IMG/VR virus record: IMGVR_UViG_3300037780_000197
Span: 1 to 28,610 of that record
DNA: 28,610 nucleotides
Reading direction: 5' to 3' (one strand)
Source: a virus
Taxonomy: Duplodnaviria; Caudoviricetes
The notes below the pieces were generated by a model. The model did not search any database. It was given only the letters and a program-made list of their open reading frames with translations, and was not told the DNA's origin. Position numbers and translations under genes: made by a program. This document shows, in pieces, positions 8,656-25,972 of the stretch. Positions within the stretch are counted from its first letter, which is position 1. The number at the start of each line of letters is the position of its first letter.

Positions 8656-9117
8656 TGGCGCGTCTCCTTTCTTGTGGAGCGATTTCATTGTCAGGTTGGG
8701 ATCGTTGACGAGCGACGCGCGCAGGATCTGCGTGACCCGATGCGGCTTTTTCTCGGACGCCAGGAAAACCGGCGAGATGTAGGCGTAGGCACGGTCCTCG
8801 AGCAGCGCTTGGCCGGATGCGGTCCATTCCACCTGACCCCAGATACCGTCGTCTCGCGCTTCCATGGCGACGATCCAGCCGCGTGCCGGCGAGGGGTCGC
8901 CGTTTTCGCCCTTGATGTCGGTCGAGTGGTTCTCGTCGATCGGCAGTTTCTGCCCCGGTCGCATCGACGCCGCGATGATGGCGTCCATGTCGTCGACAGA
9001 GTAGGGACCGCGCCCGTCAGCGCCGTTGAAAGTGCCGGCCGGGATCAGCTGGACCCAGTCCGGCGCGGAGGCGGCCGTCGAAAGCGCGGTGGAATGAAGA
9101 CAGAGGAGCGTGTCCAT
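8098..9117 (-). CDS. Prohead protease/scaffold (Mu gpI-like)
   Basis: WVQLIPAG.F.G.DGRGP, LPIDENH, PARGWI, VEWT and YISPVF motifs plus a coiled-coil C-terminal half. Confidence 0.95.
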   Translation of the reverse strand: MDTLLCLHSTALSTAASAPDWVQLIPAGTFNGADGRGPYSVDDMDAIIAASMRPGQKLPIDENHSTDIKGENGDPSPARGWIVAMEARDDGIWGQVEWTASGQALLEDRAYAYISPVFLASEKKPHRVTQILRASLVNDPNLTMKSLHKKGDAPMDEAIAKALGLKPDADLAAATAAISGLQATLASMRKALALEDDADGDAVITALNARLKAKPEEGGKDEVIAGLEEQITSLNARLTSLTETTAKKSAIDVVDAAIAAGKLVPSLRDHYIARHMKDPHGVAKELDAFVSINAGGIAKPPVETEAGAVDAAGQEVIALMGLDPEAYAKTHKQIMKEYG

Positions 9118-9152
9118 GACGCCCTGTTTGGGCCATCGCTCCGCCTCTTGTC

Positions 9153-9169
9153 AGAATGGCCGACGCCAG
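9153..9169 (-). promoter_or_regulatory. Putative late-activator binding site upstream of the protease/head operon
   Basis: CTGGC-gtcg-GCCATTCT on the minus strand; identical flanks to the site at 17518-17534. Confidence 0.65.
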
Positions 9170-9174
9170 TGTGT

Positions 9175-9675
9175 TCAGCGGGCCGCGCGTCGCAGGAACC
9201 CGTCAATAACGCGTTCAATCATGCGCTGATCGCCAGCATTGATGCCCAGATACGGCCGTGCGGGTATGTCGACCGAGGTTGGCCGCACCAGCGCATCGCC
9301 CATGCGGAACGCCAGACGTCCGCCGCCCTTGGCCTTGATCGTCCCGCCGCGCTGGTGGATGGCCGCATAGACCTTGTTGGAGCCTATCCTGACCGTGTCC
9401 CGCCCGGCAGCATGGGTCACGCTGTCGCGGAGGGCTCCGCTCTCGGTCAGGATACGCGCATTGCGCTTCGTCGCAGCGTAGACCGGGTTGAGCGCCGTCC
9501 AGGCGGCACCGTCAGGGTCGGTCTGCGTGACGAAACGGCGTTGGGTGGACCGCACCAGGCCGGTGCCGATCGCGTCCATGACAGGTTTGGTGTTGTCCAT
9601 TGCCCGCTCGAGCCGCGCGAAGCGCTCACGCACGGCGCGGTCCTCAAGTGTGACGGTCAGCGTGATCCCGGCCAT
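9175..9675 (-). CDS. Virion morphogenesis protein (Mu gpG/gp31-like)
   Basis: RRF..QTDPDG..W..L, IL..SG.LR.S, GSNKVYAAIHQ.GG and IPARPYLG motifs. Confidence 0.93.
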   Translation of the reverse strand: MAGITLTVTLEDRAVRERFARLERAMDNTKPVMDAIGTGLVRSTQRRFVTQTDPDGAAWTALNPVYAATKRNARILTESGALRDSVTHAAGRDTVRIGSNKVYAAIHQRGGTIKAKGGGRLAFRMGDALVRPTSVDIPARPYLGINAGDQRMIERVIDGFLRRAAR

Positions 9676-9677
9676 GT

Positions 9678-9706
9678 TTGACGTTTACCGCCGCCCCGCC
9701 TATCTT
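9678..9706 (+). promoter_or_regulatory. Sigma70-like promoter pointing back toward the MuF 3' end
   Basis: TTGACG (9678-9683), 17-bp spacer, TATCTT (9701-9706). Confidence 0.65.
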
Positions 9707-9775: not shown

Positions 9776-10853
9776 ATTCCCTCACCAACGGCCAGCCAAG
9801 CACCTTCGAGACCTGTTTCGGGCGCGCCCGATGCACGGTCGTGACCAGGAACTCGGCGTTGCGGGTGCGCTTGAAGCCGACCATGTGGGGCTTGCCGCCG
9901 ATCGTCACGATCGCCGACAGAAGGCCACGGGGCGAACGCCGAATGCCCGCATCCAGTGCACTGACTGCCGCCCGGGCATAGAAGCCGACGCCATGATCTC
10001 GCAGTGCCAGATGGTCCCGGATGGTCTGGGCGCTCACCCGGGCAAAGGCGCCGGGCTCCAGACCGAGCGCGCCGCGCAGTGTATCGCCGGGGTCGGCGAT
10101 CGGCAGCGACGCGCGGGCCGAGATCGACCCGTCCACGGCCGCCCGTTCGAAGGCATCCATCATCGAGCCCGTCGCCAGGCTTTCGCCGGGCCGGCCGCCC
10201 GACAGCCAGGCACGGCCGGGGTTGTAGTCGAAGCTCTGATCGACGCCGCGCGTGCCACCAGCCGGCTGATCGAGGTCGGGCGCGTGATCGGGTCGTGACT
10301 TGCCCTGGCGATCGAGATCGGCATCGTCGGCCGGGATGACGAAACAGCCGCAGCCGAACCCGTTGGGCGGATAAGCAACATCCCAGAACGGATCGTCGGC
10401 ACGGATCGTGAGCCCGTCCCAGGACAGGTGGTCGCGGCGAGGATGGACGGCGCCCGAATGGTTGTATTGCCAGTATGGCCAGACCGCGAGCGTCTCGGGC
10501 AACGTCAGCTGCGCATACCGCCCAGCGGCATAAGCGGTGCGCATGTTGGTCTCGTAGATTACCCGCGCCCGCCAGTCGCGATCGCCGGTGTGCTCCCAGC
10601 CATGTCTGGCGACGATGTCATCGAACGCAGCGCGAAACTCATCCAGCGTCGTGCCTTCGGCCAGCGCCTTGTCGATCTCGGCGCGGAAGTCGGCGACCAG
10701 CGCATCCGATGCCGCGCCGGCCACCGAAAAAGCATGGCTGTGTGCCGCGCCCTGGACGTCGAGCCAGCGTTCGGTCGGGACGTTGACCTTCTCCCGAAAG
10801 AAGTCGATTGCCTCCTCAAACGGCAGGTTCTCGACGCTTTCATCGACCGCCAT
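9774..10853 (-). CDS. MuF/gp30 head morphogenesis protein with C-terminal PBECR-like nuclease extension
   Basis: LPFEEAIDFFREK, IYETNMRTAYAAGRY, HPRRDHLSWDG, PPNGFGCGC and FDYNPG MuF motifs, followed by ~140 extra aa with a T..DH motif and VGFKRTRNAEFLVTTVHR. Confidence 0.9.
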   Translation of the reverse strand: MAVDESVENLPFEEAIDFFREKVNVPTERWLDVQGAAHSHAFSVAGAASDALVADFRAEIDKALAEGTTLDEFRAAFDDIVARHGWEHTGDRDWRARVIYETNMRTAYAAGRYAQLTLPETLAVWPYWQYNHSGAVHPRRDHLSWDGLTIRADDPFWDVAYPPNGFGCGCFVIPADDADLDRQGKSRPDHAPDLDQPAGGTRGVDQSFDYNPGRAWLSGGRPGESLATGSMMDAFERAAVDGSISARASLPIADPGDTLRGALGLEPGAFARVSAQTIRDHLALRDHGVGFYARAAVSALDAGIRRSPRGLLSAIVTIGGKPHMVGFKRTRNAEFLVTTVHRARPKQVSKVLGWPLVRE

Positions 10854-10856
10854 CGC

Positions 10857-10979
10857 TCAAGCGCCCCCGAACGGGCCATTGAAAGCTCTGGAAGCGGGTC
10901 TGGAAGGGGGTCGCGGCACGACCGGGTACATCGGCCCCGGATTGACCTCGCGCGCCTGTGCGGGCTTGTGACGCGTCAT
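10857..10979 (-). other. Portal-MuF spacer: 40-codon coupled mini-ORF and candidate strong gyrase site
   Basis: ATGA overlap with the portal stop; MTRHKPAQAREVNPGPMYPVVPRPPSRPASRAFNGPFGGA*; phased TTGAAAG/TGGAAG/TGGAAG motifs at 10879, 10889 and 10901. Confidence 0.4.
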
Positions 10980-12577
10980 CGCCGTTTCGTTTCCAGATCG
11001 TCGACAAGGCTGGCCTGGCCGGCCAGATGTGCCAGCGCCATGCCGCGCGCCATTGCGATCGACAATTGCGTCGGGTCAAGATCGAGCGCGGCAAGCCCAT
11101 CGGCCGCCTCACGGAGCGTGCGGGCCTCCGTCAGAACCAAGCGCACTTCTTCGGTCAGCCCTGCCAGAGCACCGGCGGCGTCGCGCTGCAGGCGGTCGGA
11201 CAGGCGCGCCACATCTTCGTCGGCCGGATCGGCACGGTGGCGAGAAAGCAGCAGTCGGGCCGATGCATTGGCGATGGTGCCCGGTTCGGCCGCTCCGGGT
11301 GCGGGACCGCCGCCGATCAACTCGTCACTGTCGTCGGGCGCCGGAATGCCCATGCGATCGCGCATCCATCCGGCGGGCGCCGTCAGCCCGAGCGGCGCCA
11401 GCGCGGCGAAGGCCGTGCTGAACTCGCCGAGCGGCACTTCGTCAGGCCGTCCGATCCGGACCCGCGGATAGTGATCCTGGGGTCCGAAGTTGAAGGCAAT
11501 CAGATTGGGCACGAGCTGCATGTTGACCGTGCCCGAGATCATTTTGGCGTCCGACCGCTCGATGTCTTCCTGGACCAGGCGATGTTCCTTGGCGACGGCA
11601 TGGCCGCCCGAGACGGCGTCGGTGGTCGTCGTCTGGCCGAGCACGGCCTTCGAGATCTGTCGGTCGAACCAGTCGGCCCGCTTTTCGTAGAGATCCGATG
11701 TCGAGCTCTTGTCGGTGACGCTGACGAACTCGATCGACATGCCGTTGGGCACGATGGCCGCACAGTCGCCCGCGATCTGCGAGACGGCCCGCCACAGGAT
11801 CGCCTTGTCCTCCTCGGTGGCGTTGCCGTCGTAACGGCCGAGCCGGATAGGCTGACCGTAGTTCTGGCAGAAGATCGCCCAGTCCTTGAGCGTGAACTGC
11901 TTGTACATCCAGGCCCAGCTGGCGACGCGCGCCAGTCCAGATCGGACCGTAAGTCCCGACTTCGAAGGATGCCGGTGTATCAGGAACTTGTGCCCCGCCA
12001 GCGGCACGCCCGTCGCGCCCTCCCGGAGAAGCACGGTCTCGCCATCTTCGCGGTCGAACGTGAACCAGCGCTGCGGCCGGTAGAGGAACCGGCCCGGTTG
12101 CCAGCGACCATGCATGGTCACCCAGTCGATCTCCATGATCGAAAGACCCTTGCCGATGGCATCGAGCATGTCGAACAGCGCGTCTTCAAGAATGCCCTCT
12201 GCGATCCAGTCGCGGACGAATTGGGCGTGTTTCTTGTGCACCGGGCTGTCACTTGCCTCGGTCACCGTGATCGGCAGCTGTGCGACCGATCGTTTGCGCG
12301 TCGCCATCACGCCGGCATAATGCAGATCGCGCTCCTCGATGTCCTCGGCCAGTTCGAAGTAGAGTTCCGGATCACCGGTTGCAGCCGCGCGGTGGATCAT
12401 GGCGAGGCGCGCTGGTGTCAGCCCCTCGGCCGGATGGCCCGAAATCGGCTGGCGAACCGCTCCGACGGTCGGCGTCGCGACTTCGGTGGTAAGCGCTTTG
12501 GGCGGAACTGCCCTGCCGCCTGCATCGCGAGGGCTCTTGATACGCATCAGCTCGGTGAAGGTCTTGGCCATGGTCAC
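10976..12577 (-). CDS. Portal protein (Mu gp29/DUF935-like)
   Basis: GLTPARL, EERDLHY, DAIGKG.S..EI.W, KDWAIFCQNYGQPIRLGRY and QISKAVLGQT motifs; GTGA overlap with the terminase stop (alternative ATG 12571). Confidence 0.95.
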   Translation of the reverse strand: MTMAKTFTELMRIKSPRDAGGRAVPPKALTTEVATPTVGAVRQPISGHPAEGLTPARLAMIHRAAATGDPELYFELAEDIEERDLHYAGVMATRKRSVAQLPITVTEASDSPVHKKHAQFVRDWIAEGILEDALFDMLDAIGKGLSIMEIDWVTMHGRWQPGRFLYRPQRWFTFDREDGETVLLREGATGVPLAGHKFLIHRHPSKSGLTVRSGLARVASWAWMYKQFTLKDWAIFCQNYGQPIRLGRYDGNATEEDKAILWRAVSQIAGDCAAIVPNGMSIEFVSVTDKSSTSDLYEKRADWFDRQISKAVLGQTTTTDAVSGGHAVAKEHRLVQEDIERSDAKMISGTVNMQLVPNLIAFNFGPQDHYPRVRIGRPDEVPLGEFSTAFAALAPLGLTAPAGWMRDRMGIPAPDDSDELIGGGPAPGAAEPGTIANASARLLLSRHRADPADEDVARLSDRLQRDAAGALAGLTEEVRLVLTEARTLREAADGLAALDLDPTQLSIAMARGMALAHLAGQASLVDDLETKRR

Positions 12578-14229
12578 AAGCTCCCGCGAAGACCAGGGTC
12601 GATCGTGCGCGCGGGCCGGTCGCGGTCGTGCGAGGACTGGCGCCGGTTCTTGGCAACGCGATCGACCGCGCTCTCATATCCATACTCGAACTGCGTAGAC
12701 TGGCGCGATGCGAACCAGGCCAGCGCCCCCGCGATGGCCGTATCGCCGTGCCGGTCCAAACCGTCGCTGCCCTTGAACCGGAAATCCTCGGGCACGCGGA
12801 TGTAGCCGTTGGTGTATTGCAGCGCCTGGTGGTCGCGCAGCACGTCGTCGTCCTTCGGCACGACGATGTCCTCGTCCGCAAACGCCGATTGATAGGGCGG
12901 CATCTCGAGACGAAACCACTCCGGTGTGAACTTCACCTCATGGATGCGCTCGCCGAATTCTTGCGCTGCCACTTCGGCCAGATAGGCGCCGTTGCCGCCA
13001 GCATCGAGCGCGCCAGCCAGAAAGCGCGGCAGGCGGTGGATGACATAGAAGACGATCTGGCGCTGCTGCTCGAACGGGATGTTGCGCATCTCGACAATGA
13101 AGCGAACGCGCCGGATCAGATCGAGGCCAATGGCCGGCACGACGATCGCCGACACGTCGCCGGTGCGTGCGAAGTCCTGGCCGAATGCATGCTGCTCCTT
13201 CGGGTCGAGAGCAGTCAGGATGGGCGCCAGTTCTCGCTCGCACCAATCCCTGATGTCGGCCTCGCGGATCTGTTTGGGTGCGTTTTTGAAGTCGTCGTCG
13301 CGGATCAGTCGCAGAACCGGAATGCCGGCGACCATGACGTTTTCGATCTGCACCCGCGTCAGGGCCGCGCCTTCGGCCTCTGACGGGATGGCATCGAGCT
13401 CTTGGCGCATCGCCGCGACGCGTACACCGTAGCTCTTTCGAATGCGTGCCTCCCATCGGGCTTCGGCGTCAGCCGACCATTCTCGCTGGCGGATCAGGCA
13501 AACACGCCGGTAAAGGCCGTTCTCGACGGCTTTGGAGAACGGGATGTGATGCAGCGAGAAGGGAACCTTTTCCGCCTTGGCCTCCTGGATCAGCTCGTTG
13601 AAGGCGTTCAAGACGCCATTGTGTGTCGAGATCACGCGCACCTTTCCGCCCCAGATCAGAAGCGCATTCACCGCGTCGATCACCGCGCGCACATCGCGAT
13701 GGAAAGCGGCCTCGTCCACGACCACGATGCCCTGCAGGCCACGAATGTTGGCCGGGTTGGAAGACAGTGCTTCCACGCGGAAGCCCGAGGCGAAGCGGAC
13801 ACGATAGGCCGAGATGAATTTGGTCGACCCGTCTTCCTGCTCGTCCTCGAACAGGAACTCCTCGATGTTCACGAGCTCCTTGGCGACGATCTTGGCGAAG
13901 TGCGCCACATAGCCGATGAACTCGCGCCCCTTGTCCTTCGTGTCGCCGATGTAGAAGACGTTGTCGCCGCCTGCCGATCGCTTGGAGGCCGCCGTGATCG
14001 TGTCGTCGAGTGCCTCGGCATAGGTGATCCCTGTGCGCCGCCCCTTCTCCGCCGCCTTCATGTCCGACTTGTCCTCGATCCAGTCGAGCTGGTGAGCCAT
14101 GAGGATGCCGTCCGCAAGCGGATCGTGATCGTCCGGCAGGTCGCTGCCGCGCGTGAAGTCCGGACCGAGCGCAGCCGGGTCGCGAGACATGACGGGACGG
14201 GTATTGGGCACCGTGTTTGGCGTGTTCAT
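12574..14229 (-). CDS. terL: Terminase large subunit (Mu gp28-like)
   Basis: EKGRRTGITYAEA (Walker A variant), VVVDEAAFH (Walker B), ISTHNG, GQDFARTGD and HGDTAIA nuclease motifs; ATG 14229 overlaps the upstream stop. Confidence 0.95.
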   Translation of the reverse strand: MNTPNTVPNTRPVMSRDPAALGPDFTRGSDLPDDHDPLADGILMAHQLDWIEDKSDMKAAEKGRRTGITYAEALDDTITAASKRSAGGDNVFYIGDTKDKGREFIGYVAHFAKIVAKELVNIEEFLFEDEQEDGSTKFISAYRVRFASGFRVEALSSNPANIRGLQGIVVVDEAAFHRDVRAVIDAVNALLIWGGKVRVISTHNGVLNAFNELIQEAKAEKVPFSLHHIPFSKAVENGLYRRVCLIRQREWSADAEARWEARIRKSYGVRVAAMRQELDAIPSEAEGAALTRVQIENVMVAGIPVLRLIRDDDFKNAPKQIREADIRDWCERELAPILTALDPKEQHAFGQDFARTGDVSAIVVPAIGLDLIRRVRFIVEMRNIPFEQQRQIVFYVIHRLPRFLAGALDAGGNGAYLAEVAAQEFGERIHEVKFTPEWFRLEMPPYQSAFADEDIVVPKDDDVLRDHQALQYTNGYIRVPEDFRFKGSDGLDRHGDTAIAGALAWFASRQSTQFEYGYESAVDRVAKNRRQSSHDRDRPARTIDPGLRGSL

Positions 14230-14795
14230 GAACGCACCCCCAGGACCTGCCGGCGCAGTTCGGCGGCGCGCTCCTCCGACAGCCCGGCCTCGCGGACCAC
14301 GGCCTCTGTGACCTCTTCCACCTTGTCGGCCATTTCCTGCTCGAGCTTGAGACGCCGTGCCGACGAGACCGATTGTGCTTGGGCGAAAGATCGGGCCGCC
14401 ATGGCCAGTTCCTTGGCGTCTCGCGGCGAGAAGCCTTCTTCGCCGGCCCCTTGCAGAAGTTCGAAAACGAGCGTCTTGCCGAGTTCCGAGACCATGATTG
14501 TCAGATCGTCGGAGGCGTCCTCGTTCAATCGCTCGCCGAGCGCGGAAACGATGCGATGCGTCTCTTCGATCCGCCGGGTCGTTTGCGCCAGCATCATGGA
14601 GTACCGATTGAAGGCGGACTTCGAGATCGGGTCTATGCCGAGTTGGCGTAGCTGTTCGTTGAACTCGGCGAGGATCTCGGTCTGCAGCCGCTCCCGTCTG
14701 CGCAACTCCCCGACCGCCCAAGCGATCGCGGGCTGTGCCTCGTCGGGCAGCTGGTCGATCGTTGACAGGCGGCCCCTGCCACGGCGCGCGCTCAC
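14226..14795 (-). CDS. Mu gp27-like protein (DUF3486), probable terminase small subunit
   Basis: GRGRLSTIDQLP and ISKSAFNRY motifs; immediately upstream of terL. Confidence 0.88.
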   Translation of the reverse strand: MSARRGRGRLSTIDQLPDEAQPAIAWAVGELRRRERLQTEILAEFNEQLRQLGIDPISKSAFNRYSMMLAQTTRRIEETHRIVSALGERLNEDASDDLTIMVSELGKTLVFELLQGAGEEGFSPRDAKELAMAARSFAQAQSVSSARRLKLEQEMADKVEEVTEAVVREAGLSEERAAELRRQVLGVRS

Positions 14796-14800
14796 GGCGG

Positions 14801-15121
14801 CTAGCTCCGCGCCGGCGAAGGTCGCGCAACGCCATGCAGGACCGTGCGACGCTCGACGTGATCAAGGCCGGCCTCCGTCAGTTCCGCAACAATGGCGGTG
14901 CCGGCGCGGATAAGCTTGACCGCGCCGGCATTCTCTTCCAGCCATGTCAGCTGGTTGCGCGTGAAGTCTCGGCCGCGGTTGATGGCGAACTGCTGCAGCA
15001 CCGTGGTCAGCATCTTGTCGTTGAGCCTGTAGTCGTTCTGGTCGGCTAGCGCCTTCAGGATGATCAGGCGTGCCTCGGCCGCATAATGCTCGGCATATCC
15101 TTCGAATTGTTCGGCGTTCAT
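14801..15121 (-). CDS. Mu gp26-like winged-helix protein
   Basis: RLIILKAL, QLTWLEE, and LTEAGLDHV...GVARPS motifs; synteny. Confidence 0.82.
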   Translation of the reverse strand: MNAEQFEGYAEHYAAEARLIILKALADQNDYRLNDKMLTTVLQQFAINRGRDFTRNQLTWLEENAGAVKLIRAGTAIVAELTEAGLDHVERRTVLHGVARPSPARS

Positions 15122-15923: not shown

Positions 15924-16459
15924 CTAACCGTCCTGTCCCTGGCCAAGGCGGCAACGTTCTTGCCGAGTTCCTTCAGCGTGTGCCCGCCCATGTAAAGCGA
16001 CATGAACCAGCCGGTCAGCGTCAGAAGGATCGACCATTCGACGGCCTCGATCGGAACGACCGCGTAGGCGTTCACGATCGGCAAGATGACGATCCGCCAG
16101 ATCCAGAACCCGGCCAGTAGATACATCCAGCCCCACCGCCAGAAGCCCTTCCAGAAGCCGTCGCGCGTCTCGGCTTCAAGCAAGGCAAACTGTCCCTCAA
16201 GGCCCTTCGACCACAGTTCGAGCAGCTCCGGTGCATCGGCCTCGGCCGCCATAACGGCTTTTTCGACGCGCGTGCGATCCGTGCTCACCAGATCGGGCAA
16301 CTCTCTTGCCGGCACGCCGGCCTTGGAAGCGACGACATCGATGACGGTCCCGGCGATTTCCGCGGCACCCTTGCCGGCACGCTGCTCGATCAGTCGCTTG
16401 ACCGTCGTTGCGCCGATTTCGGCGGCAACCCCGGCGATGATAGTTCCGATCGCGCTCAT
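15920..16459 (-). CDS. Holin-like protein (3TM holin/GTA-holin type)
   Basis: FWRWGWMYLL, ILLTLTGWFMSLYMGGHTLK C-terminal hydrophobic motifs; ATG 16459 overlaps the endolysin stop. Confidence 0.7.
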   Translation of the reverse strand: MSAIGTIIAGVAAEIGATTVKRLIEQRAGKGAAEIAGTVIDVVASKAGVPARELPDLVSTDRTRVEKAVMAAEADAPELLELWSKGLEGQFALLEAETRDGFWKGFWRWGWMYLLAGFWIWRIVILPIVNAYAVVPIEAVEWSILLTLTGWFMSLYMGGHTLKELGKNVAALARDRTVR

Positions 16460-17460
16460 CGGATGCGCCCCTTTCCGGCAATGAGTGAACGGGCACCAAG
16501 GCCCACCTCGTCGCGATAGCGCCAACCCAGCCAGATCAGGGCGACCACAATGACCAGCAGACCGCCCCAGACCAGCCAGTCACCATAGCCGGTCACGTCA
16601 GCGCCGGTGGCCGTATCCGCACCGCCTGCCGCGCTCGTCGCGCCGCCGGAAACCGTGGCGCGTCCAGCCCCGCGCCGCAGATCCATCACGCGCTGGATCT
16701 GGTCGCGCGTTGCCCGACCAAGCACGCCGTCATTGGTGAGATTGGGGTGCTCGAACTGGAACGCCTTGACCGCTTTGCGGAAGTCCTTTGACGAACGCAG
16801 CATCCCGGCACTGTGACGACCGGCCGGTTTCCAGAAACCGAGCGTCTCGAGCCAGCGTGCCGCTTCAAGGAGATCGTCGTCATCAAGCCGCCAGGCCGGC
16901 AGCTTCTCGACCGCCGCGGCAACCGTCACGGTTTTGTCCGCTCCTTTAAGCCACTTCGGCCAGATGTTGTGCTCCATTATGACGGAGCCCTCCTGGCGCC
17001 GTCGAACCAGACCGGCCAGCCGCCGCCCGCCGGCCTTGGTCGCCGTGACCCGGAAACGCCGGGCTGCTTCGGCGATGTTTCCGGCCTTCAAGTGCCGCGC
17101 CCAGCTCCACTTCAGCGAGCCCGGACCGGCATTGAAGCTCATGTCCATGCCGGAGGACATTGCGTGCGGCGAAACCGAAGCATTGGCATTCTCGAAAAAG
17201 CGCCAGACGGGCGGGCCATACTCATCGTCGATCAGCAACTGCTTGACCGCGTAGATTTCGGCGTCGGTCATGGTGGCACCAGGGCCGAACCGTTGGCCCT
17301 TTCGATTGTCGGCCCACCAGCGCTTGAACGCGTGCGATCGCATGGTGAAGCCCATGCCGATGGTCGGCACACCGATCGGGTCGCGGTACCAGCGATTGAC
17401 CTTGCCCTCATTGCCGGCAAGCCAGGGGATGAGACGGAGGTCGTAAACGAGATTGGACAT
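16456..17460 (-). CDS. Endolysin: GH24-like lysozyme + peptidoglycan-binding domain + C-terminal TM helix
   Basis: EG......Y.DP.G.PTIG.G catalytic motif, GLVRRRQE, AVKAFQ..HP.L..DG..G..T PG-binding motif, WLVWGGLLVIVVALIWLGW. Confidence 0.9.
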   Translation of the reverse strand: MSNLVYDLRLIPWLAGNEGKVNRWYRDPIGVPTIGMGFTMRSHAFKRWWADNRKGQRFGPGATMTDAEIYAVKQLLIDDEYGPPVWRFFENANASVSPHAMSSGMDMSFNAGPGSLKWSWARHLKAGNIAEAARRFRVTATKAGGRRLAGLVRRRQEGSVIMEHNIWPKWLKGADKTVTVAAAVEKLPAWRLDDDDLLEAARWLETLGFWKPAGRHSAGMLRSSKDFRKAVKAFQFEHPNLTNDGVLGRATRDQIQRVMDLRRGAGRATVSGGATSAAGGADTATGADVTGYGDWLVWGGLLVIVVALIWLGWRYRDEVGLGARSLIAGKGRIR

Positions 17461-17541: not shown

Positions 17542-17895
17542 TCACTCGAACAGCGAGAACTGGCGTTGCTGGTGTCCGCGCTTTTTGGCCTCGCGAAACA
17601 GGCGATAGACGCCGCTCTCGCTCATCGTCAAACGCCGCGCGATCTGCTTGAGTGTCATGCCGGCGCGGCGATAAAAATGCGCCCGGAACGCGCGGGAGAC
17701 GGGCACCTGCAGATAATCGCCGCCATACTCCTCCGACAGCGCTCGCGCATGGTCAAGGCCGATCTCATCGGCGAGCTTGGTCTGGTCGACGCGGTGCGGC
17801 ACATAGGTCAGGACGCCGCCATGCGCCTCGAGCAGCCGAATGTAACCCTCCTCGCCGAGCAGCGACAGCAGTTGCGCTTCCAGCCGGTCACTCAT
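17542..17895 (-). CDS. Mor/C-family transcription activator
   Basis: L....GG...YVP and YGG..L.VP repeats, C-terminal HTH (MTLKQIARRLTMSESGVYRLF); directly upstream of the lysis genes. Confidence 0.82.
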   Translation of the reverse strand: MSDRLEAQLLSLLGEEGYIRLLEAHGGVLTYVPHRVDQTKLADEIGLDHARALSEEYGGDYLQVPVSRAFRAHFYRRAGMTLKQIARRLTMSESGVYRLFREAKKRGHQQRQFSLFE

Positions 17896-18193
17896 CGCCA
17901 CACGCCCCGCGGCGCCTCTCGCGCGCGTTGGCTTCGGCGATCGCACCGAGCATGTTGCGCTCGAGCACGGTCGGAATGTGAACATGCCGCGTTCCTGTTG
18001 CATCGGTGTGATCGGGCGAGATCACCAGCTTGATCCGATCGAGCTTCAGACCAACCGCTCCCCTCTCGGCGGCATCCTGTGCCATAGACGCGATGTGCCG
18101 TTTTAATGCGGCCACATCGACGCCAAGTCCGCGCTCGAGATAGCGGATGACGGCGTGGTCGGTGACGCGAATGATGGCGGCACGGCGTTTCAT
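17888..18193 (-). CDS. Hypothetical phage protein (VTDHAVIRYLER motif)
   Basis: ATGA overlap with the gemA stop and overlap with the Mor-like start. Confidence 0.8.
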   Translation of the reverse strand: MKRRAAIIRVTDHAVIRYLERGLGVDVAALKRHIASMAQDAAERGAVGLKLDRIKLVISPDHTDATGTRHVHIPTVLERNMLGAIAEANARERRRGACGDE

Positions 18194-18825
18194 CGATCCG
18201 CCCCTGCGCTCTGCAATCGGATGCGGTCACCCAGCGTGTTCATCACTGCATGCCAATCGCGCTCGGTCCTGAATTGGTTGGGCGCCGCAATGCCGCCCGC
18301 CTCGCAGACGGTCGGCCAGAAGTCGCGCGCGCCAGTGTCTGCATCAAGGATCAGACACTGGGCCATGGCGATCCGGCAGCCGTTATGCGGTTGCCAGTCC
18401 TTCCACTTGCCCCAATCGACGCCGCCGTCGCGTGCAAGCCAGCCCTTTAGTGCCACGATCGCCTTGGTCGCATCGTCGTGATGATGCAGGAAGCGCGTAT
18501 GGTCGAGGCCGGTCTGGCGTTTGACAAAGGCGAGCAGCGCCTGGTCGTCCCGGTTGCGGACCAGGCCGAGGTTCCAGCCGGCGATCCAGAGTGCCTGCAG
18601 TTTCTTGGCATAGGGTCCGGCAAGCGCCTCGCGGCCCTTTCGAGAACCGTTTGAAACCCCTTTGAAGCCGAGCCGGCGTAGCTCCGCGACCACGGCTTCC
18701 CGCTGACCCTCGTCCATGTCGGCCGCCGAGCGATGTCCGGTCACCCGCTGGTAGAGCGCCCGCTTGGCTTCGTTGTCGAGCCCGAGTTGCCGCATTCCGG
18801 CATGGATGGCGCGCAGGGCGGTCAT
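18190..18825 (-). CDS. gemA: Regulatory protein GemA (Mu gp16/DUF1018-like)
   Basis: IH....QLGLD....RA....VTG..S...M, L.RLGF, KLQALW, AL.AFVKRQTG and I.ALK.W motifs; ATG 18825. Confidence 0.9.
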   Translation of the reverse strand: MTALRAIHAGMRQLGLDNEAKRALYQRVTGHRSAADMDEGQREAVVAELRRLGFKGVSNGSRKGREALAGPYAKKLQALWIAGWNLGLVRNRDDQALLAFVKRQTGLDHTRFLHHHDDATKAIVALKGWLARDGGVDWGKWKDWQPHNGCRIAMAQCLILDADTGARDFWPTVCEAGGIAAPNQFRTERDWHAVMNTLGDRIRLQSAGADR

Positions 18826-19358
18826 GACGCGGCGCCTGCGGACGAAAACGCTTTGTGCCTCGCGCCCGTCACGCAATAGTCTTCCGTAAGCCTACGACAC
18901 TGCGGCGATGGGCGCGCGAGAGGATTGTGATGAGACGGCGTGCTTTGACAGCGTTGGCGCTGATGAATTCGTTGGCGGCGCCGGCGAATGCCAGCCAGAT
19001 GGTGCAGATCGTCCAAACGATACCCGACAGGGGTCAGCAGTTCGCCATCAGGGCTTCCCTGATTGCGATGATGAGCGAACAGTCTTGCGAGCAGGCGGTC
19101 ACAGACGTCTTCGCTGTCTGGCAGCTCAACGGCATGCATGACGTCCGCTTCGAACAGTGGGACGAGGGTGGTGAGTTCTTCGATTGGGCCTATGAGGTGG
19201 GCACGACAATTCACCGGACGTGGGAGGCAGACCCTGCCGGCACATGCCAGCAATGGATCGCCGAGTACGGCCCCAACGGAAGCGTGCGCGCGGGTTTGAT
19301 TGATCTCTTGCCGACTGAGTGACTTAGGTTCGACACTTTTGGGACCGAGCGCGCTCAT
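18822..19358 (-). CDS. Antisense bridging ORF B (178 codons), coding status uncertain
   Basis: ATG 19358 overlaps the stop of ORF A and its TGA overlaps the gemA ATG; lies entirely opposite the + strand gene 18930-19322. Confidence 0.35.
   Translation of the reverse strand: MSALGPKSVEPKSLSRQEINQTRAHASVGAVLGDPLLACAGRVCLPRPVNCRAHLIGPIEELTTLVPLFEADVMHAVELPDSEDVCDRLLARLFAHHRNQGSPDGELLTPVGYRLDDLHHLAGIRRRRQRIHQRQRCQSTPSHHNPLARPSPQCRRLTEDYCVTGARHKAFSSAGAAS
18930..19322 (+). CDS. Accessory (moron) secreted/periplasmic protein
   Basis: GAGAGGA SD, ATG 18930; MRRRALTALALMNSLAAPANA signal-peptide-like N-terminus; two Cys; opposite strand to the phage operon. Confidence 0.8.
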   Translation: MRRRALTALALMNSLAAPANASQMVQIVQTIPDRGQQFAIRASLIAMMSEQSCEQAVTDVFAVWQLNGMHDVRFEQWDEGGEFFDWAYEVGTTIHRTWEADPAGTCQQWIAEYGPNGSVRAGLIDLLPTE

Positions 19359-20122
19359 GCTTGCAGGTCCGCCGCATGATTGATTAGCCTGTGGTTCCAC
19401 CGGGCGAGGCCACAATGAAACCGACATACAACTTCTTGGAGCTGGCGATGGCCGGCGCGGTCATGACTGCGTTGGGGTTTTTCTTGTCTGCATCGCTTCA
19501 CCAAGACGGAACGCAGCGCTCGTGGTTCTACGACTATCAGGCCTTTGTCGCCGGTCTTCTGGCGATCGTCGCGGCGCTCCTCACTGTTCGACAGATGCGG
19601 CGAACGGATCGCCGAACGGACTTGCGGCACAGAGAGCAGCTCGTTGTTTCCACTCTGCCAGACCGCCTGGCGATAATTAGGATGCGGGAGTTGCTGTTGC
19701 CGCGGCTGCACGGCTCGGTCGAGCTCATACGCAACTACATCTCGGGTCTGCCCAGCCAATCCCCCGACGACCTTACGCACGGCCACATGGCAAATGGTGC
19801 GCGTGTCCTGCATTATGTTTTGGGCTCTACGGCGGAGCTGCTTGCGTATGCGGGTAAATCCCCGGGAGCGCGGTTCTTCGGTCCAATTCAAGAGCGTTTG
19901 CTGGACGAGTGTATTGGTTGGATTGACGCCTGCCTTAGTGCACACCGGCAAGACGGTTGGTCGGGTGGAGAAACGTTCGAACCAGTTGCGGTCGTGCTTC
20001 TGCTCGATGCAGCAACCGGGCTTGAGGATTTGGCCCAAAGCATCGACTATTGGTCTGCGGACGTTGCGGTTTAGGAGCCATCGCGCTCGCCGCGTCGTCG
20101 GGTTTTTCCTCATCTCGATCAC
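19355..20122 (-). CDS. Antisense bridging ORF A (255 codons), coding status uncertain
   Basis: GTG 20122 overlaps the DUF3164 stop (GTGA) with GAGG upstream; its TGA overlaps the ATG of ORF B; lies entirely opposite the + strand gene 19415-20074. Confidence 0.35.
   Translation of the reverse strand: MIEMRKNPTTRRARWLLNRNVRRPIVDALGQILKPGCCIEQKHDRNWFERFSTRPTVLPVCTKAGVNPTNTLVQQTLLNWTEEPRSRGFTRIRKQLRRRAQNIMQDTRTICHVAVRKVVGGLAGQTRDVVAYELDRAVQPRQQQLPHPNYRQAVWQSGNNELLSVPQVRSAIRSPHLSNSEERRDDRQKTGDKGLIVVEPRALRSVLVKRCRQEKPQRSHDRAGHRQLQEVVCRFHCGLARWNHRLINHAADLQA
19415..20074 (+). CDS. Accessory (moron) membrane protein with two N-terminal TM segments
   Basis: GAGG SD, ATG 19415; hydrophobic LAMAGAVMTALGFFLSA and AFVAGLLAIVAALLTV followed by a helical soluble domain; visibly more A/T-ending codons than neighbours. 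Confidence 0.82.
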   Translation: MKPTYNFLELAMAGAVMTALGFFLSASLHQDGTQRSWFYDYQAFVAGLLAIVAALLTVRQMRRTDRRTDLRHREQLVVSTLPDRLAIIRMRELLLPRLHGSVELIRNYISGLPSQSPDDLTHGHMANGARVLHYVLGSTAELLAYAGKSPGARFFGPIQERLLDECIGWIDACLSAHRQDGWSGGETFEPVAVVLLLDAATGLEDLAQSIDYWSADVAV

Positions 20123-20778
20123 TTTGGAACCCTCGCCAGGTCGATCGTGACCGCGCGCCAGGGATCGGTCACCCGCGCACGACGATAGAAGCGGATGTAC
20201 TCCTTGGACCCGGTGACGCGCATGGCGTCGCGGATCGCCTCCATCGCCTTGACCCACCGTTCGTCGGTGATGTCGAGCCGCAGCAGCATGAAGATGTCCG
20301 ACCGGTTGATCTGGCCCTGTTTCTCGGTCTGGAAGGCCCGCGTGACGAGCGCGCGGATCTCCGGCCGGCTGTCGGCCGCCCATTCGTTCAGGCATTCGTC
20401 GATCAGCGTCTTGGCCACCTGAAGCTGCGGCCCGAAATCGACGAAGTCGGCAACCTGCACCTGCACCTTCATCAGTCCGCCGAAGTCCTGATAGGTCCGG
20501 TTGCCCTTCTTTCCGCCCTTCTTGGCGCCATAGTCCTGTTCGAGCAGTGCGTCGAACTCGCCGAGATCGGCCATTGTGTGGCCCCGGAAACGGGCGATCT
20601 GGGCGGATAGATCAAGCGCATATCCCATGATCTTGCGCACGATCTCGTCTTCCAGCTTGTCCTGCGGCTTGATGTTCTCGACCGGCACAAGCTGGCCCTT
20701 GGCGTCGGCCATGTAATCGCGCCCGTTCACGCGCACGATGCCATTCTGGTCTTCGTCTTCGAGGATCACAGCTTCCAT
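20119..20778 (-). CDS. DUF3164 family protein of Mu-like phages
   Basis: YM.DAKG.LVP...IKP.D.L, GGKKGN, FGP.LQ.AK.LIDECL and W..AM.AI.D......SK.Y.RFY motifs; AAGGAG SD. Confidence 0.92.
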   Translation of the reverse strand: MEAVILEDEDQNGIVRVNGRDYMADAKGQLVPVENIKPQDKLEDEIVRKIMGYALDLSAQIARFRGHTMADLGEFDALLEQDYGAKKGGKKGNRTYQDFGGLMKVQVQVADFVDFGPQLQVAKTLIDECLNEWAADSRPEIRALVTRAFQTEKQGQINRSDIFMLLRLDITDERWVKAMEAIRDAMRVTGSKEYIRFYRRARVTDPWRAVTIDLARVPK

Positions 20779-21928: not shown

Positions 21929-22188
21929 TGCATCGTCTCCGGGCCGCTGGGATTGCCCAGGCGAAGAGCAAGGCGCCGGGCATGGGCTCCATCCATGATC
22001 TGACGGTGGATGGCCACTTCCTTGTCGATGGCGGACGCGAGCGTTGTCAGAAGGTCGATCTGGCGCAGCGCGCCGCTCACGGCCTCGGCTTCGGCTGGCT
22101 GATCCGGACGGAAACGTGCTTCGAACCATTTGCGGAAGTCGGCCAGCTCGGTGGTGACGAGTGGCGGATGTTCGGAGGCTGCGCTCAT
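21925..22188 (-). CDS. Hypothetical helical phage protein
   Basis: ATG 22188 overlaps the MuB stop; GGAGGGG SD; 87 aa. Confidence 0.72.
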   Translation of the reverse strand: MSAASEHPPLVTTELADFRKWFEARFRPDQPAEAEAVSGALRQIDLLTTLASAIDKEVAIHRQIMDGAHARRLALRLGNPSGPETMQ

Positions 22189-23216
22189 CCCAGCCCCTCC
22201 ACGTCCCGGTTCTCCCAGGCCCACTTCAGATGGTCGAGGGTCAGCGCCTTGCGGTCTCCAGCGGCATTGATCATCGCAACCTTGATGGTCATGTCGATCT
22301 GGCCCAGTGCTCCGGGCTTCATGCCAACGCCGGTCAGAAAGGTGATCTGCTCTGTGTCGCTGATGCCCCACGCCTTGATGAAGGCGAGAAGATCGTCCTT
22401 GCGGGGGCGGTCGATCTTGACACGCTTGAAGATGCGTCGGCGCAACTGGCCATACTTCGAACCGTCCATGACGCTGGCCGAAAAGCGGCTATACGTCTCG
22501 GTGTTTCCGAGAATGGCCACGCCACACCTGTATTGATCGACGAAATGGCGCAGCTGGTTGATGGCTTCATCGACGAGGTTCTGTGCCTCATCGACAATCA
22601 GCAGCGTGCCCGCGCCCTTTCGCTCGAGCCGTTCACCGATGGAGCGGACGAGCCGGGTCGGATTGTGAGATCGCACACCGACGGCAAAGGCGATCTCGGT
22701 CAGCATCGCATGGACAGTGCGCGTGTGCGGGCTGATCGTCGCCAAATGGGTGTGCGGCCTGCTTGCGGCGAAATGCTCGGCCGAGGCCGTTTTGCCGACC
22801 CCTGCCGCGCCGGTGACCATGACGAGTGCCGGCATGATCTGCGCGGCAAACAGCGTGTCGGTGATCACCCTGGCGGAGTGCGTCTGCAGAAAATCTGGTG
22901 ATTGGGGAACCGACGGGCCCTCGTCGATCCGGTCGTAGAGCGCAAGGTACTTCCCAACCGCCTCGTTGTGACGATCGAACCGCCCCTGATAGGTGCCTTG
23001 ATACCATCCCGAGAACGTACTTGTGGGCATGCCGATCTGCTCGGCCATCTTGGTCTTCGACCAGCCATTGAGGACCGCGATCTCATAGATCCGCGTGACA
23101 AGCTTGACCCAGTTCTCGAAGTCTTTTGCCGTGCGCCCCGGCCCGTCCTTGAAGGGCACCGAGGTCTCGGGCAATTGCCATTGATGGTCGTGGCTTGTGC
23201 CGTGATGGATGTTCAT
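22185..23216 (-). CDS. MuB-like AAA+ transposition ATPase with N-terminal HTH
   Basis: GAAGVGKT Walker A, LLIVDEAQNL Walker B, WSKTKMAEQIGMPTSTFSGW HTH; AAGGAG SD before ATG 23216. Confidence 0.95.
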   Translation of the reverse strand: MNIHHGTSHDHQWQLPETSVPFKDGPGRTAKDFENWVKLVTRIYEIAVLNGWSKTKMAEQIGMPTSTFSGWYQGTYQGRFDRHNEAVGKYLALYDRIDEGPSVPQSPDFLQTHSARVITDTLFAAQIMPALVMVTGAAGVGKTASAEHFAASRPHTHLATISPHTRTVHAMLTEIAFAVGVRSHNPTRLVRSIGERLERKGAGTLLIVDEAQNLVDEAINQLRHFVDQYRCGVAILGNTETYSRFSASVMDGSKYGQLRRRIFKRVKIDRPRKDDLLAFIKAWGISDTEQITFLTGVGMKPGALGQIDMTIKVAMINAAGDRKALTLDHLKWAWENRDVEGLG

Positions 23217-23262
23217 GCTATCTCCTTGGTGTGAAATGTCCGCTCGCAAGAGCGGCACTGGG

Positions 23263-23296
23263 AACCGGCGGAGGGCAATTCCGCCGGTTTTTCTTT
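23263..23296 (+). terminator. Intrinsic terminator-like hairpin between the transposase and MuB genes
   Basis: AACCGGCGGA-gggcaat-TCCGCCGGTT followed by TTTCTTT on the + strand. Confidence 0.6.
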
Positions 23297-23337
23297 GCGC
23301 GGGCGGGTCGACGAGCCGTCCTGCGCGTGGCGCGGGT

Positions 23338-25248
23338 TCACTCCCTGCCGCCGGCAATCAGCTTCAGTCCGGCCGAAAAACTCCTTTCCTGGTCGATGTC
23401 AGGGTCGGGTGAAGGCTCGATCGCCTTGGCGGAGGCGCCGGCGGCAAGACGTGTCACACTGGGCCGTTCGCGCGGGGGCGCCGATGCCGGTTCGGCGCCG
23501 TCGGCGTAAAGCCGGGCAAGTTCGGCCGCAGAGAGTTCGGTGTGCAGGCGTGCTTGGGCATTGACAGCCTTGATGTAGGCGCTGCGTTTGGCCGCGTGAT
23601 CGCGCGCGGCGTCAGTGTCCGCAAAGCCGTGCGTTCCGACGCACTCGGCTTCGCAGATCAGCCGGTCGGCGCTGTCATAGACGCGAACGGGTTGGTGCAG
23701 CCGGTCTGGATCGAAGCGCACCGTCAGGTGCTTGCCGGCATGGGCCGTCAGCGCCGGCGCCCAATACCGGTTATCGAACAGCCGGACCTCACCGTTGCCC
23801 TTCGAAGCCCGGATGCGTTCGGCCGCGAGCAGCCAGAGCGCCTTCTGTGCGCTCGCAGGCCAGCGCACGATGGTCGTCGGCTCGGCGAGACTGTCGGCGA
23901 ACGCCTTGTCGAAACTGTCCCCGGCTGCGGCTTCGGTCCGCCGGCCAGAGCGTGCATTGTGCGCGGCGACCTGACGGTCGACATGCTCGCGCAGCACATC
24001 GATATTGATGGCGGAATTGCCGTAGTTTTCGGGCTTGGCATCCGGGCGATTGCCCGTGTAGGCGCCGGCGCAAAGCGGGTGCTTGGCGATGTCCTCGGCG
24101 AGATCGCGGAAGGCACGTTCGATCGGTTTGGACTGACCCGCATAGGGCGTCGTCCAGTGCACCTTTACGCCGAGCGCCGTCAACACACCCTGCGGTTCCT
24201 CGACGCGAACCTTGAACCGGTAGCGCGTCGCGGTGCCGCCTGTGATCCACTTGGATGCGAAGGCACGGCCATTGTCGAGATAGACATGATCGGGGATACC
24301 GTACCGATCGACCATGTCGCCGATCGCCAATCGGACGGCGTCCTTGTTTTCAGACAGCGACAGCCGCCATGCAAGGATCTTCCGAGAGTACAGATCCTGC
24401 AGCGCCATCATGTAGACGCGCACGGGTGTCGGCTGACCCGGTACCCGGACGAACAGATCGAGTTTGTGACCGTCCGCGTTGACGGCTTCCATCGCGTGCA
24501 AGGCGGCGATGCTGCGTTTCTGGGCCGGATAAAGCGCCTTGACGGCGTCACGGCCGTTGCGCGCGGCGACGCGCACCTCTTTGCCGACTTCAGCCTCCAA
24601 CCGCCGCCGCAACGACGCTTCCGTCGGCAGCGTCCAGCCCTTGTCGGCGGCCAGCGCCGCGACCCGACGATAGCAGGCCGAGAAAGCCGGAGCTTCCGGA
24701 CGAAGATAGTCCGATTTGAGGGCCGCCCACGCCTCCGGCGAACAGGAACTCCGCTTCGCCGTCGGCCGGTAATTCGGGGCAAGCCGCGCCAGCCAGTGCG
24801 CGCGTGGCCGACCAGCGACCCGTTCACGCCAGCGCAGCACGCTGGCCGGCGAGACGCCGCCAGCCTTTGCGGCCTTGGCGATCGCGGCCGTGAGGGTCAG
24901 GCCACCGGCGCAGTACTCGTCAACGGCATCGAGAACACGAAGCCGCGCGATCGCGCGCTTCTTGTGCCGATCCGGCAGCCGATCGAACGCGCACGCGGTG
25001 TCGACGCTGACACGCGCAGCTTCAGTTTCATTGTCCTGGACCGTGTTCAGTCTCGCCCGCACCGGCCCGGGCAGAAGATCGCGGTGATACTCCCATTGAC
25101 CGCCCCGGCCGGGCCGCTTGCGCGCCTTGCCTGGTTGGGTGCGCCAGCCTTCCTTCGCGACCTTCTTGTTGAGGCCGCGCACGGTGCCGGGCAGATCGCC
25201 GCCCGCAAAGGCCAAAATCTCGTCGACCGTGAAGAATGCCCGCGCCAT
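23338..25248 (-). CDS. MuA-like DDE transposase
   Basis: N-terminal Mu DNA-binding domain (LPGT.RGL......GW...GGQWEYH...LP), DYLRPE.P, NADGH (D), LDNGRAF (D), KPIERAF (E), and VRFDP..LH C-terminal domain. Confidence 0.97.
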   Translation of the reverse strand: MARAFFTVDEILAFAGGDLPGTVRGLNKKVAKEGWRTQPGKARKRPGRGGQWEYHRDLLPGPVRARLNTVQDNETEAARVSVDTACAFDRLPDRHKKRAIARLRVLDAVDEYCAGGLTLTAAIAKAAKAGGVSPASVLRWRERVAGRPRAHWLARLAPNYRPTAKRSSCSPEAWAALKSDYLRPEAPAFSACYRRVAALAADKGWTLPTEASLRRRLEAEVGKEVRVAARNGRDAVKALYPAQKRSIAALHAMEAVNADGHKLDLFVRVPGQPTPVRVYMMALQDLYSRKILAWRLSLSENKDAVRLAIGDMVDRYGIPDHVYLDNGRAFASKWITGGTATRYRFKVRVEEPQGVLTALGVKVHWTTPYAGQSKPIERAFRDLAEDIAKHPLCAGAYTGNRPDAKPENYGNSAINIDVLREHVDRQVAAHNARSGRRTEAAAGDSFDKAFADSLAEPTTIVRWPASAQKALWLLAAERIRASKGNGEVRLFDNRYWAPALTAHAGKHLTVRFDPDRLHQPVRVYDSADRLICEAECVGTHGFADTDAARDHAAKRSAYIKAVNAQARLHTELSAAELARLYADGAEPASAPPRERPSVTRLAAGASAKAIEPSPDPDIDQERSFSAGLKLIAGGRE

Positions 25249-25251
25249 CGG

Positions 25252-25704
25252 CTAGTCGGCTCCTCGTCTGATCTGGACGGGCAGCGACTGAAGGGCCTTC
25301 AGCTTGGCGGCCAGCTTGCGTTGCTCCTGCTGAAGCCGGGCGATCTCGGCAAGGCGTGCTTCGTCACCCTGCAGGACGAGGAGGCCGTCATCGCTGACCG
25401 CAACGTCCCAGAGGCCCGGGGCCTCGGCGGCGCGCGCCAGCGCCTTGAAGCGAACGAGGCTGATGTCCTGCTGCTTGGCGGGGGATGTGTAGGCGTCAAG
25501 CATTGCCTTCGACATGGCGCTGCCGCCGAGCATCCGGCCGATACGCGCGGCGACCGCGTGCCTGTCGCGGCCCTTGAGGGCCTGCGACATGGCGCCCTTG
25601 ATCCGCAACCTGAACCGGTCAAGGTCGAGATCGGTGGCCGGCGTTCGGCTCTCGAAGACGGGTTTGGCGAACATGTCGGCCTGGGCCGGCGAAGCGTTAC
25701 GCAT
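25252..25704 (-). CDS. Conserved Mu-like early protein upstream of the transposase (probable DNA-binding regulator)
   Basis: R..VAA.....LG....SK.MLDAYTS...ISL.RF.AL pattern with a coiled-coil tail; its 3' end carries the GAGGAG SD for the transposase. Confidence 0.8.
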   Translation of the reverse strand: MRNASPAQADMFAKPVFESRTPATDLDLDRFRLRIKGAMSQALKGRDRHAVAARIGRMLGGSAMSKAMLDAYTSPAKQQDISLVRFKALARAAEAPGLWDVAVSDDGLLVLQGDEARLAEIARLQQEQRKLAAKLKALQSLPVQIRRGAD

Positions 25705-25972
25705 GACTGTGCTCCGTTGGACGTTTGAAGGGGCGCCGTCGCTGGCTCGCGACGATCGCGTCGACGACGAATTTCGTATGCTTGCCGGCCTGGTCGGCGT
25801 ACTCGGGCCGGCCGGTGCGCTCCGCCTTGATCTTCATGCGGATCGCCGCGCGCATCCGGTCGGCTGGCGCGCAGAAATAGTGGTCCGCGCAGACGATGGC
25901 GTTCCGGTTCGGCAAGGCGCCGGTGCAGCCCGGCACGGGACAGACGCCGCAATGGGAAGGCAGATCAGTCAT
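25697..25972 (-). CDS. Small Cys/His-rich hypothetical protein
   Basis: CGVCPVPGC...C.DH..C pattern; overlaps both neighbours. Confidence 0.7.
   Translation of the reverse strand: MTDLPSHCGVCPVPGCTGALPNRNAIVCADHYFCAPADRMRAAIRMKIKAERTGRPEYADQAGKHTKFVVDAIVASQRRRPFKRPTEHSHA

Follow-up and report, generated by a model that had tools for sequence, protein, structure and literature searches.

How can a backward gene sit inside a phage operon without interrupting it? The question is raised by a window of 28,610 nucleotides (the whole of the stretch analyzed, positions 1 to 28,610 of IMG/VR virus record IMGVR_UViG_3300037780_000197), which holds a Mu-like transposable phage on its minus strand. Two plus-strand accessory genes, cargo 1 (19415-20074) and cargo 2 (18930-19322), lie in its early operon between the DUF3164 gene (20119..20778, minus strand) and gemA (18190..18825, minus strand), and each is overlain on the phage strand by a stop-free open reading frame (ORF), here called a bridge. 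Comparison with related loci indicates that such bridging is a real and strongly selected feature.

Stop-free frames over the inverted genes of the window

Bridge frame A (ORF A, 19355..20122, minus strand, 255 codons) is codon-aligned antisense to cargo 1, and bridge frame B (ORF B, 18822..19358, minus strand, 178 codons) is likewise aligned with cargo 2. The original prediction that each frame spans one plus-strand gene, and that three exact 4-nt overlaps join them into a chain, was reproduced in full: on the minus strand, GTGA is shared by the DUF3164 stop and the ORF A start (20122-20119), ATGA by the ORF A stop and the ORF B start (19358-19355), and ATGA again by the ORF B stop and the gemA start (18825-18822). 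Overlapping NTGA stop/start codons hand ribosomes on from one frame to the next (translational coupling). The Shine-Dalgarno (SD)-like sequences also predicted upstream of these starts are good for the GTG of ORF A (GAGG, -6.9 kcal/mol; translation could also begin at the in-frame ATG at 20113) and moderate for ORF B (-5.0 kcal/mol), but weak for gemA (-2.6 kcal/mol). The remaining two phage-strand frames contain 9 and 7 stops over cargo 1 and 3 each over cargo 2. Neither cargo gene uses TTA, CTA or TCA, among 32 Leu and 14 Ser codons in cargo 1 and 9 Leu and 6 Ser codons in cargo 2.

The plus-strand genes are the protein genes. In homologous pairs divergence peaks at the third positions of the cargo codons (for example, 0.12/0.07/0.30 for loci L194 and L197). 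ORFs A and B are rich in R, Q, H, C and P, as shadow frames are, with these residues making up 35% of bridge frame A versus 20% of the cargo; neither ORF has a Pfam family, a PADLOC match or a PHROG match better than E 0.008.

By itself the window is weak to modest evidence. Codon rates matched for GC content at third positions (GC3) give a probability of an open antisense frame of about 0.08 for cargo 1 and about 0.67 for cargo 2, so that ORF B alone is compatible with chance, and 12 of the window's 28 phage-strand genes have an open antisense frame of their own, bearing out a caution attached to the original prediction. Its further argument, that three exact couplings are hard to explain by chance, was overstated. 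Among 122 distinct related intervals (146 in all, the window's included, from 160 loci found via DUF3164 or GemA), NTGA is present at 114 gemA starts and RTGA at 71 DUF3164 ends, so that two of the three junction 4-mers in the window are largely built in. The excess over chance is carried by the comparative data.

The first 12 nt of ORF B (19347-19358, minus strand) are identical to the commonest gemA 5′ end in the relatives, found in 6 of 122 gemA genes. This match suggests that cassettes may insert just behind the gemA start codon, which would be retained as the start of the bridge.

Inverted genes inside and outside Mu-like early operons

The original prediction asked whether unrelated inverted genes also keep an open, coupled antisense frame; they do. 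From a score table, 26 inverted genes were picked by hand, and 25 were stop-free in the aligned phage-strand frame, with 2-26 stops in every other frame. Rule-based calling over 214 oriented loci returned 77 inverted genes between MuB/DUF3164 and the activator; one (L019, 100 aa, no stops) was dropped as a probable shadow, and 76 were counted. Scoring was by amino acids, with approximate background frequencies, because cargo of low GC content escaped a codon model trained on the core genes. Under this rule, truncated core genes before MuB or after mor also give shadows, which were judged by eye and left uncounted.

On the operon strand, 72 of the 76 genes were covered by a codon-aligned frame without stops, whereas 7.5 open genes were expected. 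Within 16,795 codons, the stop complements TTA, CTA and TCA occurred 8 times; GC3-matched co-oriented genes of the same loci predict 280.6. Other codons ending in A were not depleted in the cargo: GCA made up 0.21 of Ala, GTA 0.14 of Val and ACA 0.18 of Thr codons. Mean cargo GC3 was 0.59; co-oriented genes with a GC3 of 0.55-0.65 were open in 8 of 93 cases, and those with a GC3 of at least 0.75 in 500 of 1030. Open cargo genes include that of L038, with a GC3 of 0.45, and that of L110, with 414 codons. ATGA or GTGA terminates 65 of the 76 frames; among the 1417 stops in the other two frames, 309 are of this form. Exact overlap with the start of a downstream ORF of at least 40 codons, often gemA or mor, is seen at the end of 68 of the 76. 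Upstream, 70 of 76 are coupled within 12 nt, 30 of them exactly, a count that has no null to set it against and was not used as evidence. If the phage strand simply avoided stop trinucleotides everywhere, its other two frames would be poor in them as well; the 1417 stops found there rule this out.

By blastp, the 76 genes form 15 families (of 53, 9 and 2 members, plus twelve singletons), and 14 of the 15 have an open member. The second family, unnamed and of approximately 100-130 aa with signal-peptide-like N termini, is inverted mostly in the gemA-mor interval, and all 9 members are bridged (L074:5636-5959, L097:6494-6817, L135:5714-6115 and L156:5711-6031 are examples), one of them at a GC3 of 0.41. 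The cargo of L110 (3374-4618, 414 aa), which matches AbiZ (PADLOC, E 2e-7) and DUF6161, is fully bridged, and a pentapeptide-repeat protein is also found among the inverted cargo genes.

Where two cargo genes stand directly in tandem, as in 9 pairs, 7 pairs share one frame and are crossed by a single bridge of approximately 400-550 codons. In the other 2, the window and phage Aussie, an ATGA handover leads exactly into the frame of the second gene. Aussie (OR786373), a cultured phage of Sinorhizobium meliloti, has the same layout as the window: its DUF3164 gene is joined by GTGA to a frame at 10169-11053, by ATGA to one at 11050-11700, and by ATGA to gemA, over annotated genes 16 and 17. These are two tandem genes of the cargo 1 family (L248:10184-11619), and the handover lies inside the second, gene 17.

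The cargo 1 family was also compared inside and outside the Mu early operon. A search of viral contigs by the cargo motif alone gave 48 genes at 43 loci, some identical or previously found, and 46 of the 48 had no stop in the aligned frame. In bacterial genomes, a degenerate pattern permitting TTA and CTA gave 43 matches, 25 of which were family members. The eight in Mu early operons had no stops in seven cases and one stop in the other, whereas cargo 1 homologues in other settings carried 1-16 stops in 15 of 16 cases. The 25th member, in L239, is the gene also recorded as L196. Its aligned frame is open, and it sits in a non-Mu prophage, flanked by repressor and RuvC/DnaB genes. The depletion of TTA, CTA and TCA that the original prediction proposed to look for was evident, at 0.05 per 100 codons in the 76 inverted early-operon genes versus 2.42 in other-setting homologues at the same GC3, 0.60 (the latter rate excludes L244, identical to L213).

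Two bridged genes in non-Mu prophages, L178:5800-6699 (open and coupled, in a methyltransferase/Gam cluster) and L196:5893-6666 (in a repressor-RuvC-DnaB operon), show that the design extends beyond transposable phages. Beside the tape-measure genes of other phages, L226:3749-4675 and L242:3851-4663 are inverted and have no bridge, the first with 8 stops and the second with 6; perhaps a late operon under antitermination can do without one.

In a FastTree tree of 65 proteins and 208 columns, from which the truncated L210 was left out, the closed gene of L213 fell within an open clade (local supports 0.86-0.94) and that of L217 was sister to the open gene of L196 (0.91); the deep nodes were poorly resolved. 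Judging from this tree and the settings of the genes, openness tracks context, not ancestry. The idea that the cargo arose de novo out of an older phage gene is rejected, as stop-bearing homologues occur elsewhere and unrelated families are bridged.

What the bridges may be for

We lean towards the reading, put forward in outline with the original prediction and partly supported by these comparisons, that the bridges are translated for translation's sake, which would stop Rho from terminating early transcription ahead of gemA and the Mor-like activator gene. When RNA goes untranslated, Rho sites are exposed and the genes downstream are silenced; Rho also suppresses antisense transcription that takes place inside genes (PMC12360218). 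An untranslated, C-rich antisense stretch of 0.4-1.6 kb would be expected to be polar. From DUF3164 to gemA, stop-free frames joined start to stop could keep ribosomes on the operon mRNA across the backward genes; ribosomes would enter a bridge by termination-reinitiation or via the inherited SD of the gene slot. After insertion, selection would either filter for open inserts or purge stops by synonymous change, and the codon-aligned frame would be used because no other antisense frame can always be freed of stops by synonymous change (PMC6884476). The phage strand over the cargo has more C than G in 70 of 76 cases, compared with 595 of 1640 co-oriented genes, and this is the skew preferred by Rho (PMC6797219, PMC13650167). 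The essential beneficiary of the bridge is likely the Mor-like activator. Locus L067 has two inverted genes immediately behind mor, with 10 stops apiece, and inverted genes on the repressor side have 2-5, as expected if the transcript need reach only the activator.

Several observations weigh against this reading. The C-over-G skew is mild (mean 0.066) and expected for any antisense strand. The genes are not independent, since 53 of the 76 belong to one family, by whose motif some loci were found. The after-mor control is a single locus, L067, and an inverted gene in the late region, approximately 2.7 kb after mor (L125:6721-7041; 106 aa, acidic), is bridged and ends in ATGA. There are four exceptions among the 76: L042 has 5 stops and is crossed instead by a chain in other frames; L025 and L112 have 1 stop each near the 5′ end and are probably over-extended; and L175 has 1 stop near the 5′ end with an ATG 3 nt later, and looks like an intermediate patched by re-initiation. 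In AT-rich gammaproteobacterial Mu-like phages, early-region inverted genes are unbridged, with 6 stops in L255 and 11 in L294. Those two belong to a wider set for which Mannheimia, Vibrio and Pseudomonas phages served as seeds; among its 158 Mu-like loci, inverted early genes are rare. The mild codon-site constraint described below and the activity, in its own right when expressed, of an overlapping lytic-strand ORF of phage Fc02 (PMC9936078) also count against it. Genes of the B3 type resembling olg1 are covered patchily: L337 and L304 are open in the aligned frame, L382 is also crossed in another frame, and L387 and L389 are broken.

Bridges might instead serve only as a re-initiation relay that brings ribosomes to coupling-dependent downstream starts, with Rho uninvolved. 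The exact -4/-1 overlap at 68 of 76 bridge ends is more precise than Rho protection alone requires, and the SD of gemA is weak in the window and averages -5.7 kcal/mol in bridged gemA genes (n = 18) compared with -7.0 (n = 101). The difference is not significant, however (p = 0.098), an SD-like match of at least 4 bases is present at 26 of 65 restart codons, and strengthening an SD would presumably be cheaper than purging stops from 200-500 codons. We consider a pure relay unlikely.

The bridges might also encode functional proteins in true overlapping gene pairs, an alternative raised with the original prediction, for example, as lytic-phase inhibitors of the cargo such as Ith and anti-Tab or exclusion factors such as Fc02 Gp10. 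Precedents exist: Tha is inhibited by Ith (PMC11087260), Tab is bound by anti-Tab (PMC10884400), and ORF10 of Fc02, antisense to olg1, excludes phages, with stop mutants losing exclusion (PMC9936078). The antisense peptide was always less conserved than the cargo in bridged pairs (0.66 versus 0.82, 0.38 versus 0.59, and 0.43 versus 0.63), however. A substitution test on 15 bridged pairs of 50-97% identity showed no excess divergence at doubly silent sites: Gln codons, where a change is silent in both frames, differed at 27 of 80 positions, and Glu and Lys codons, where it alters the bridge, at 64 of 157. Four-fold sites differed equally often in bridged (254 of 557) and unbridged pairs (185 of 387). 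Two-fold sites ending in C or T differed less in bridged pairs (78 of 297) than in unbridged ones (66 of 166), a mild unexplained constraint that would fit functional bridge proteins; apart from this signal, purifying selection on the amino acids of the second frame was not found. Bridges also run 21-933 nt past the cargo start and are fused over two cargo genes in most tandem pairs, the same pattern recurs in 14 unrelated families, and ORFs A and B resemble no family in the searches reported above. On balance the frame appears conserved and the peptide not detectably so, a substitution pattern that disfavors overlapping gene pairs and makes them, in our view, decidedly unlikely.

A further proposal is that ribosome cover shields the lytic mRNA from the cis-antisense transcript of the cargo (duplex formation, RNase cleavage) or helps early RNA polymerase to overrun the cargo promoter, silencing the cargo on induction. 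The layout is that of a noncontiguous operon, in which opposing transcription regulates both sides (PMC11087260), and ribosome protection has been proposed for the narnavirus reverse ORF (PMC8316113). Against this, shielding alone does not require an exact overlap with the next start, and RNase III was not the main route in phage 80alpha (PMC11087260). We regard shielding or silencing as a slim prospect, slightly slimmer than the overlapping pairs. Finally, the bridges could be nothing more than shadow ORFs that GC-rich DNA produces by chance, their junction 4-mers being taken over from neighboring genes. The open frames of GC-rich co-oriented genes and the commonness of the junction 4-mers speak for this reading. 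It is hardly credible, and it is refuted for the group by closed homologues elsewhere and GC3-matched counts, by the open cargo of L038 and L110, and by bridge ends on RTGA and downstream starts where a shadow ORF would end at an arbitrary stop.

The readings based on polarity, on a relay and on antisense shielding are compatible; taken jointly, they would mean that translation itself is selected, which is the best reading of these comparisons. We think it probable that, in temperate phages of GC-rich hosts, a backward gene is tolerated in a lytic operon only if it is ambigrammatic, as a general and so far undescribed rule. The doubly coupled, sequence-indifferent bridge would then be a genetic element that replaces an antiterminator, enables drop-in lysogeny cassettes, and supplies translated antisense ORFs for new genes.

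Known systems, wider use and the other genes of the window

The narnavirus reverse ORF appears to be the closest analogue of the bridges. As in ambigrammatic narnaviruses, the codon-aligned antisense frame is kept stop-free by avoidance of UUA, CUA and UCA, here across diverged members (PMC6884476). The narnavirus frame is needed for persistence and is proposed to act via translation itself (PMC8316113), and translation rather than its product is proposed to matter there, as we read the bridges (PMC6884476, PMC8316113). Unlike the narnavirus, a eukaryotic RNA virus with one genome-length reverse frame over its RNA-dependent RNA polymerase gene, the present case is an operon of a double-stranded DNA phage in which many unrelated cargo genes are crossed by frames coupled on both sides.

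The nearest phage case is gene 10/olg1 of Fc02, a B3-like transposable phage, in which a backward gene transcribed in lysogeny lies in the early lytic operon with a lytic-strand ORF over it (PMC9936078). Unlike the bridges, both products have exclusion activity, and this is one conserved pair, not a rule across cargo (PMC9936078). In Fc22 (L249:9971-10496), the two ORFs that match olg1 and gene 10 in position and size lack codon alignment, and approximately 100 nt separate the end of gene 10 from the next gene. Inverted defense genes with protein inhibitors are found in phage operons as tha/ith of Staphylococcus aureus (PMC11087260) and tab/atab of the Pseudomonas aeruginosa Mu-like phage JBD26 (PMC10884400). 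The available parts of these reports describe a protein inhibitor and transcriptional interference, and not a stop-free frame over the inverted gene (PMC11087260, PMC10884400). In the window, too, antisense genes are nested between co-oriented operon genes, as in a noncontiguous operon.

As in known polarity and coupling systems, translation would shield nascent RNA from Rho, and the known phage answers to polarity are antiterminators (Q, Psu) (PMC12360218), whereas here the codon usage of the cargo itself appears to be reshaped. No antiterminator was seen among the window genes in Pfam and PHROG scans. Bridges lie in the same reading frame as the long antisense shadow ORFs of GC-rich genomes (PMC3454372, PMC8850804), which are common over the core genes of the window; unlike those, bridges are open far above the GC3-matched rate, depend on operon position, and end on a start codon. 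Searches of full-text literature, mostly outside subscription journals, returned no description of coupled stop-free frames across inverted DNA-phage genes. The bridges are a new combination of known parts, namely, an ambigrammatic frame, coupling and a noncontiguous operon, for which we infer the reason.

That reason would give long antisense ORFs with unconserved peptides, a long-argued class, a selective explanation. Sinorhizobium phage Aussie (OR786373), a cultured phage whose host is a model symbiont, would allow it to be tested by altering a single codon silently. In phage accessory regions it predicts the strand on which the true gene lies; gene callers may pick the bridge there by mistake. 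An antisense frame that is open and coupled at both ends could also serve as a sequence marker for lysogeny-expressed cargo, candidate defense genes among them. So far the marker singles out a membrane-protein family without a name (53 of 76 cases) and a family of small, secreted-type proteins (9 of 76). Anyone engineering phages would, we suggest, have to clear antisense stops from backward inserts in early operons.

Cargo 1 encodes a 219-aa, all-helical protein with two N-terminal helices that are hydrophobic by hydropathy, placed by blastp and alignments in an unnamed, diverse family of 210-280 aa with N-terminal hydrophobic helices and a conserved motif. It matches family members with blastp E values of 1e-3 to 2e-9. 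Homologue searches with each of the two window cargo proteins alone returned only the query; the cargo 1 family emerged from the related loci only, and a profile search added 4 unnamed proteins. Its AlphaFold model is confidently all-helical (predicted local distance difference test [pLDDT], 88; 46-row alignment), and fold searches with it gave no solved or viral match at E of at most 0.001. Cargo 2 is a 130-aa orphan with an N terminus that looks by eye like a signal peptide; its Atlas model has a predicted template modeling score (pTM) of 0.77 and a pLDDT of 0.80, and a separate single-sequence model was poor (pLDDT, 54). Neither protein has a Pfam, PHROG or PADLOC family or a defense-model match. 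PADLOC over 25 cargo proteins gave one match, that of L110 to AbiZ, and an Atlas neighbor of the cargo, the Retron_Ec48 effector at 0.80, is a lead only. A window scan found no consensus promoter for the cargo. A separate consensus score gave a weak signal, 10.55 versus 10.18 when shuffled, and the conserved start of gemA, on the opposite strand, confounded the expectation-maximization motif. The cargo genes, we infer, are morons that carry promoters of their own and are expressed in lysogeny; some of them are probably defense or exclusion genes.

The remaining operon genes share the minus strand. MuA (23338-25248; PF02914, PF09039, PF09299 and PF09077 in the MuA/MuB region) and MuB (22185-23357) together are the mark of a transposable phage early operon (22185..25248). 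The DUF3164 gene (PF11363, E 1e-69; phrog_846) and gemA (PF06252, E 7e-29) flank the cargo, and a conserved small phage gene (17888..18193; phrog_8252, E 3e-13) separates gemA from the Mor/C-type late transcription activator (17542..17895; PF08765, E 8e-8; phrog_836, E 4e-22), which directly precedes the endolysin gene. Beyond the endolysin, the Pfam and PHROG scans place Mu-type portal, protease and head genes. As its closest relatives with named hosts are phages of Rhizobiales and Rhodobacterales, the window phage likely has an alphaproteobacterial host. The endolysin (16456-17460) has lysozyme and peptidoglycan-binding domains, followed by a C-terminal stretch judged hydrophobic by eye. Very long antisense shadow ORFs on the plus strand (23542-25728, 13402-14913, 10958-12805 and 8125-9681) cover the transposase gene, a 763-aa gene at 12574-14865 (likely terminase), and the portal and protease genes, as expected at a GC3 of approximately 0.8.

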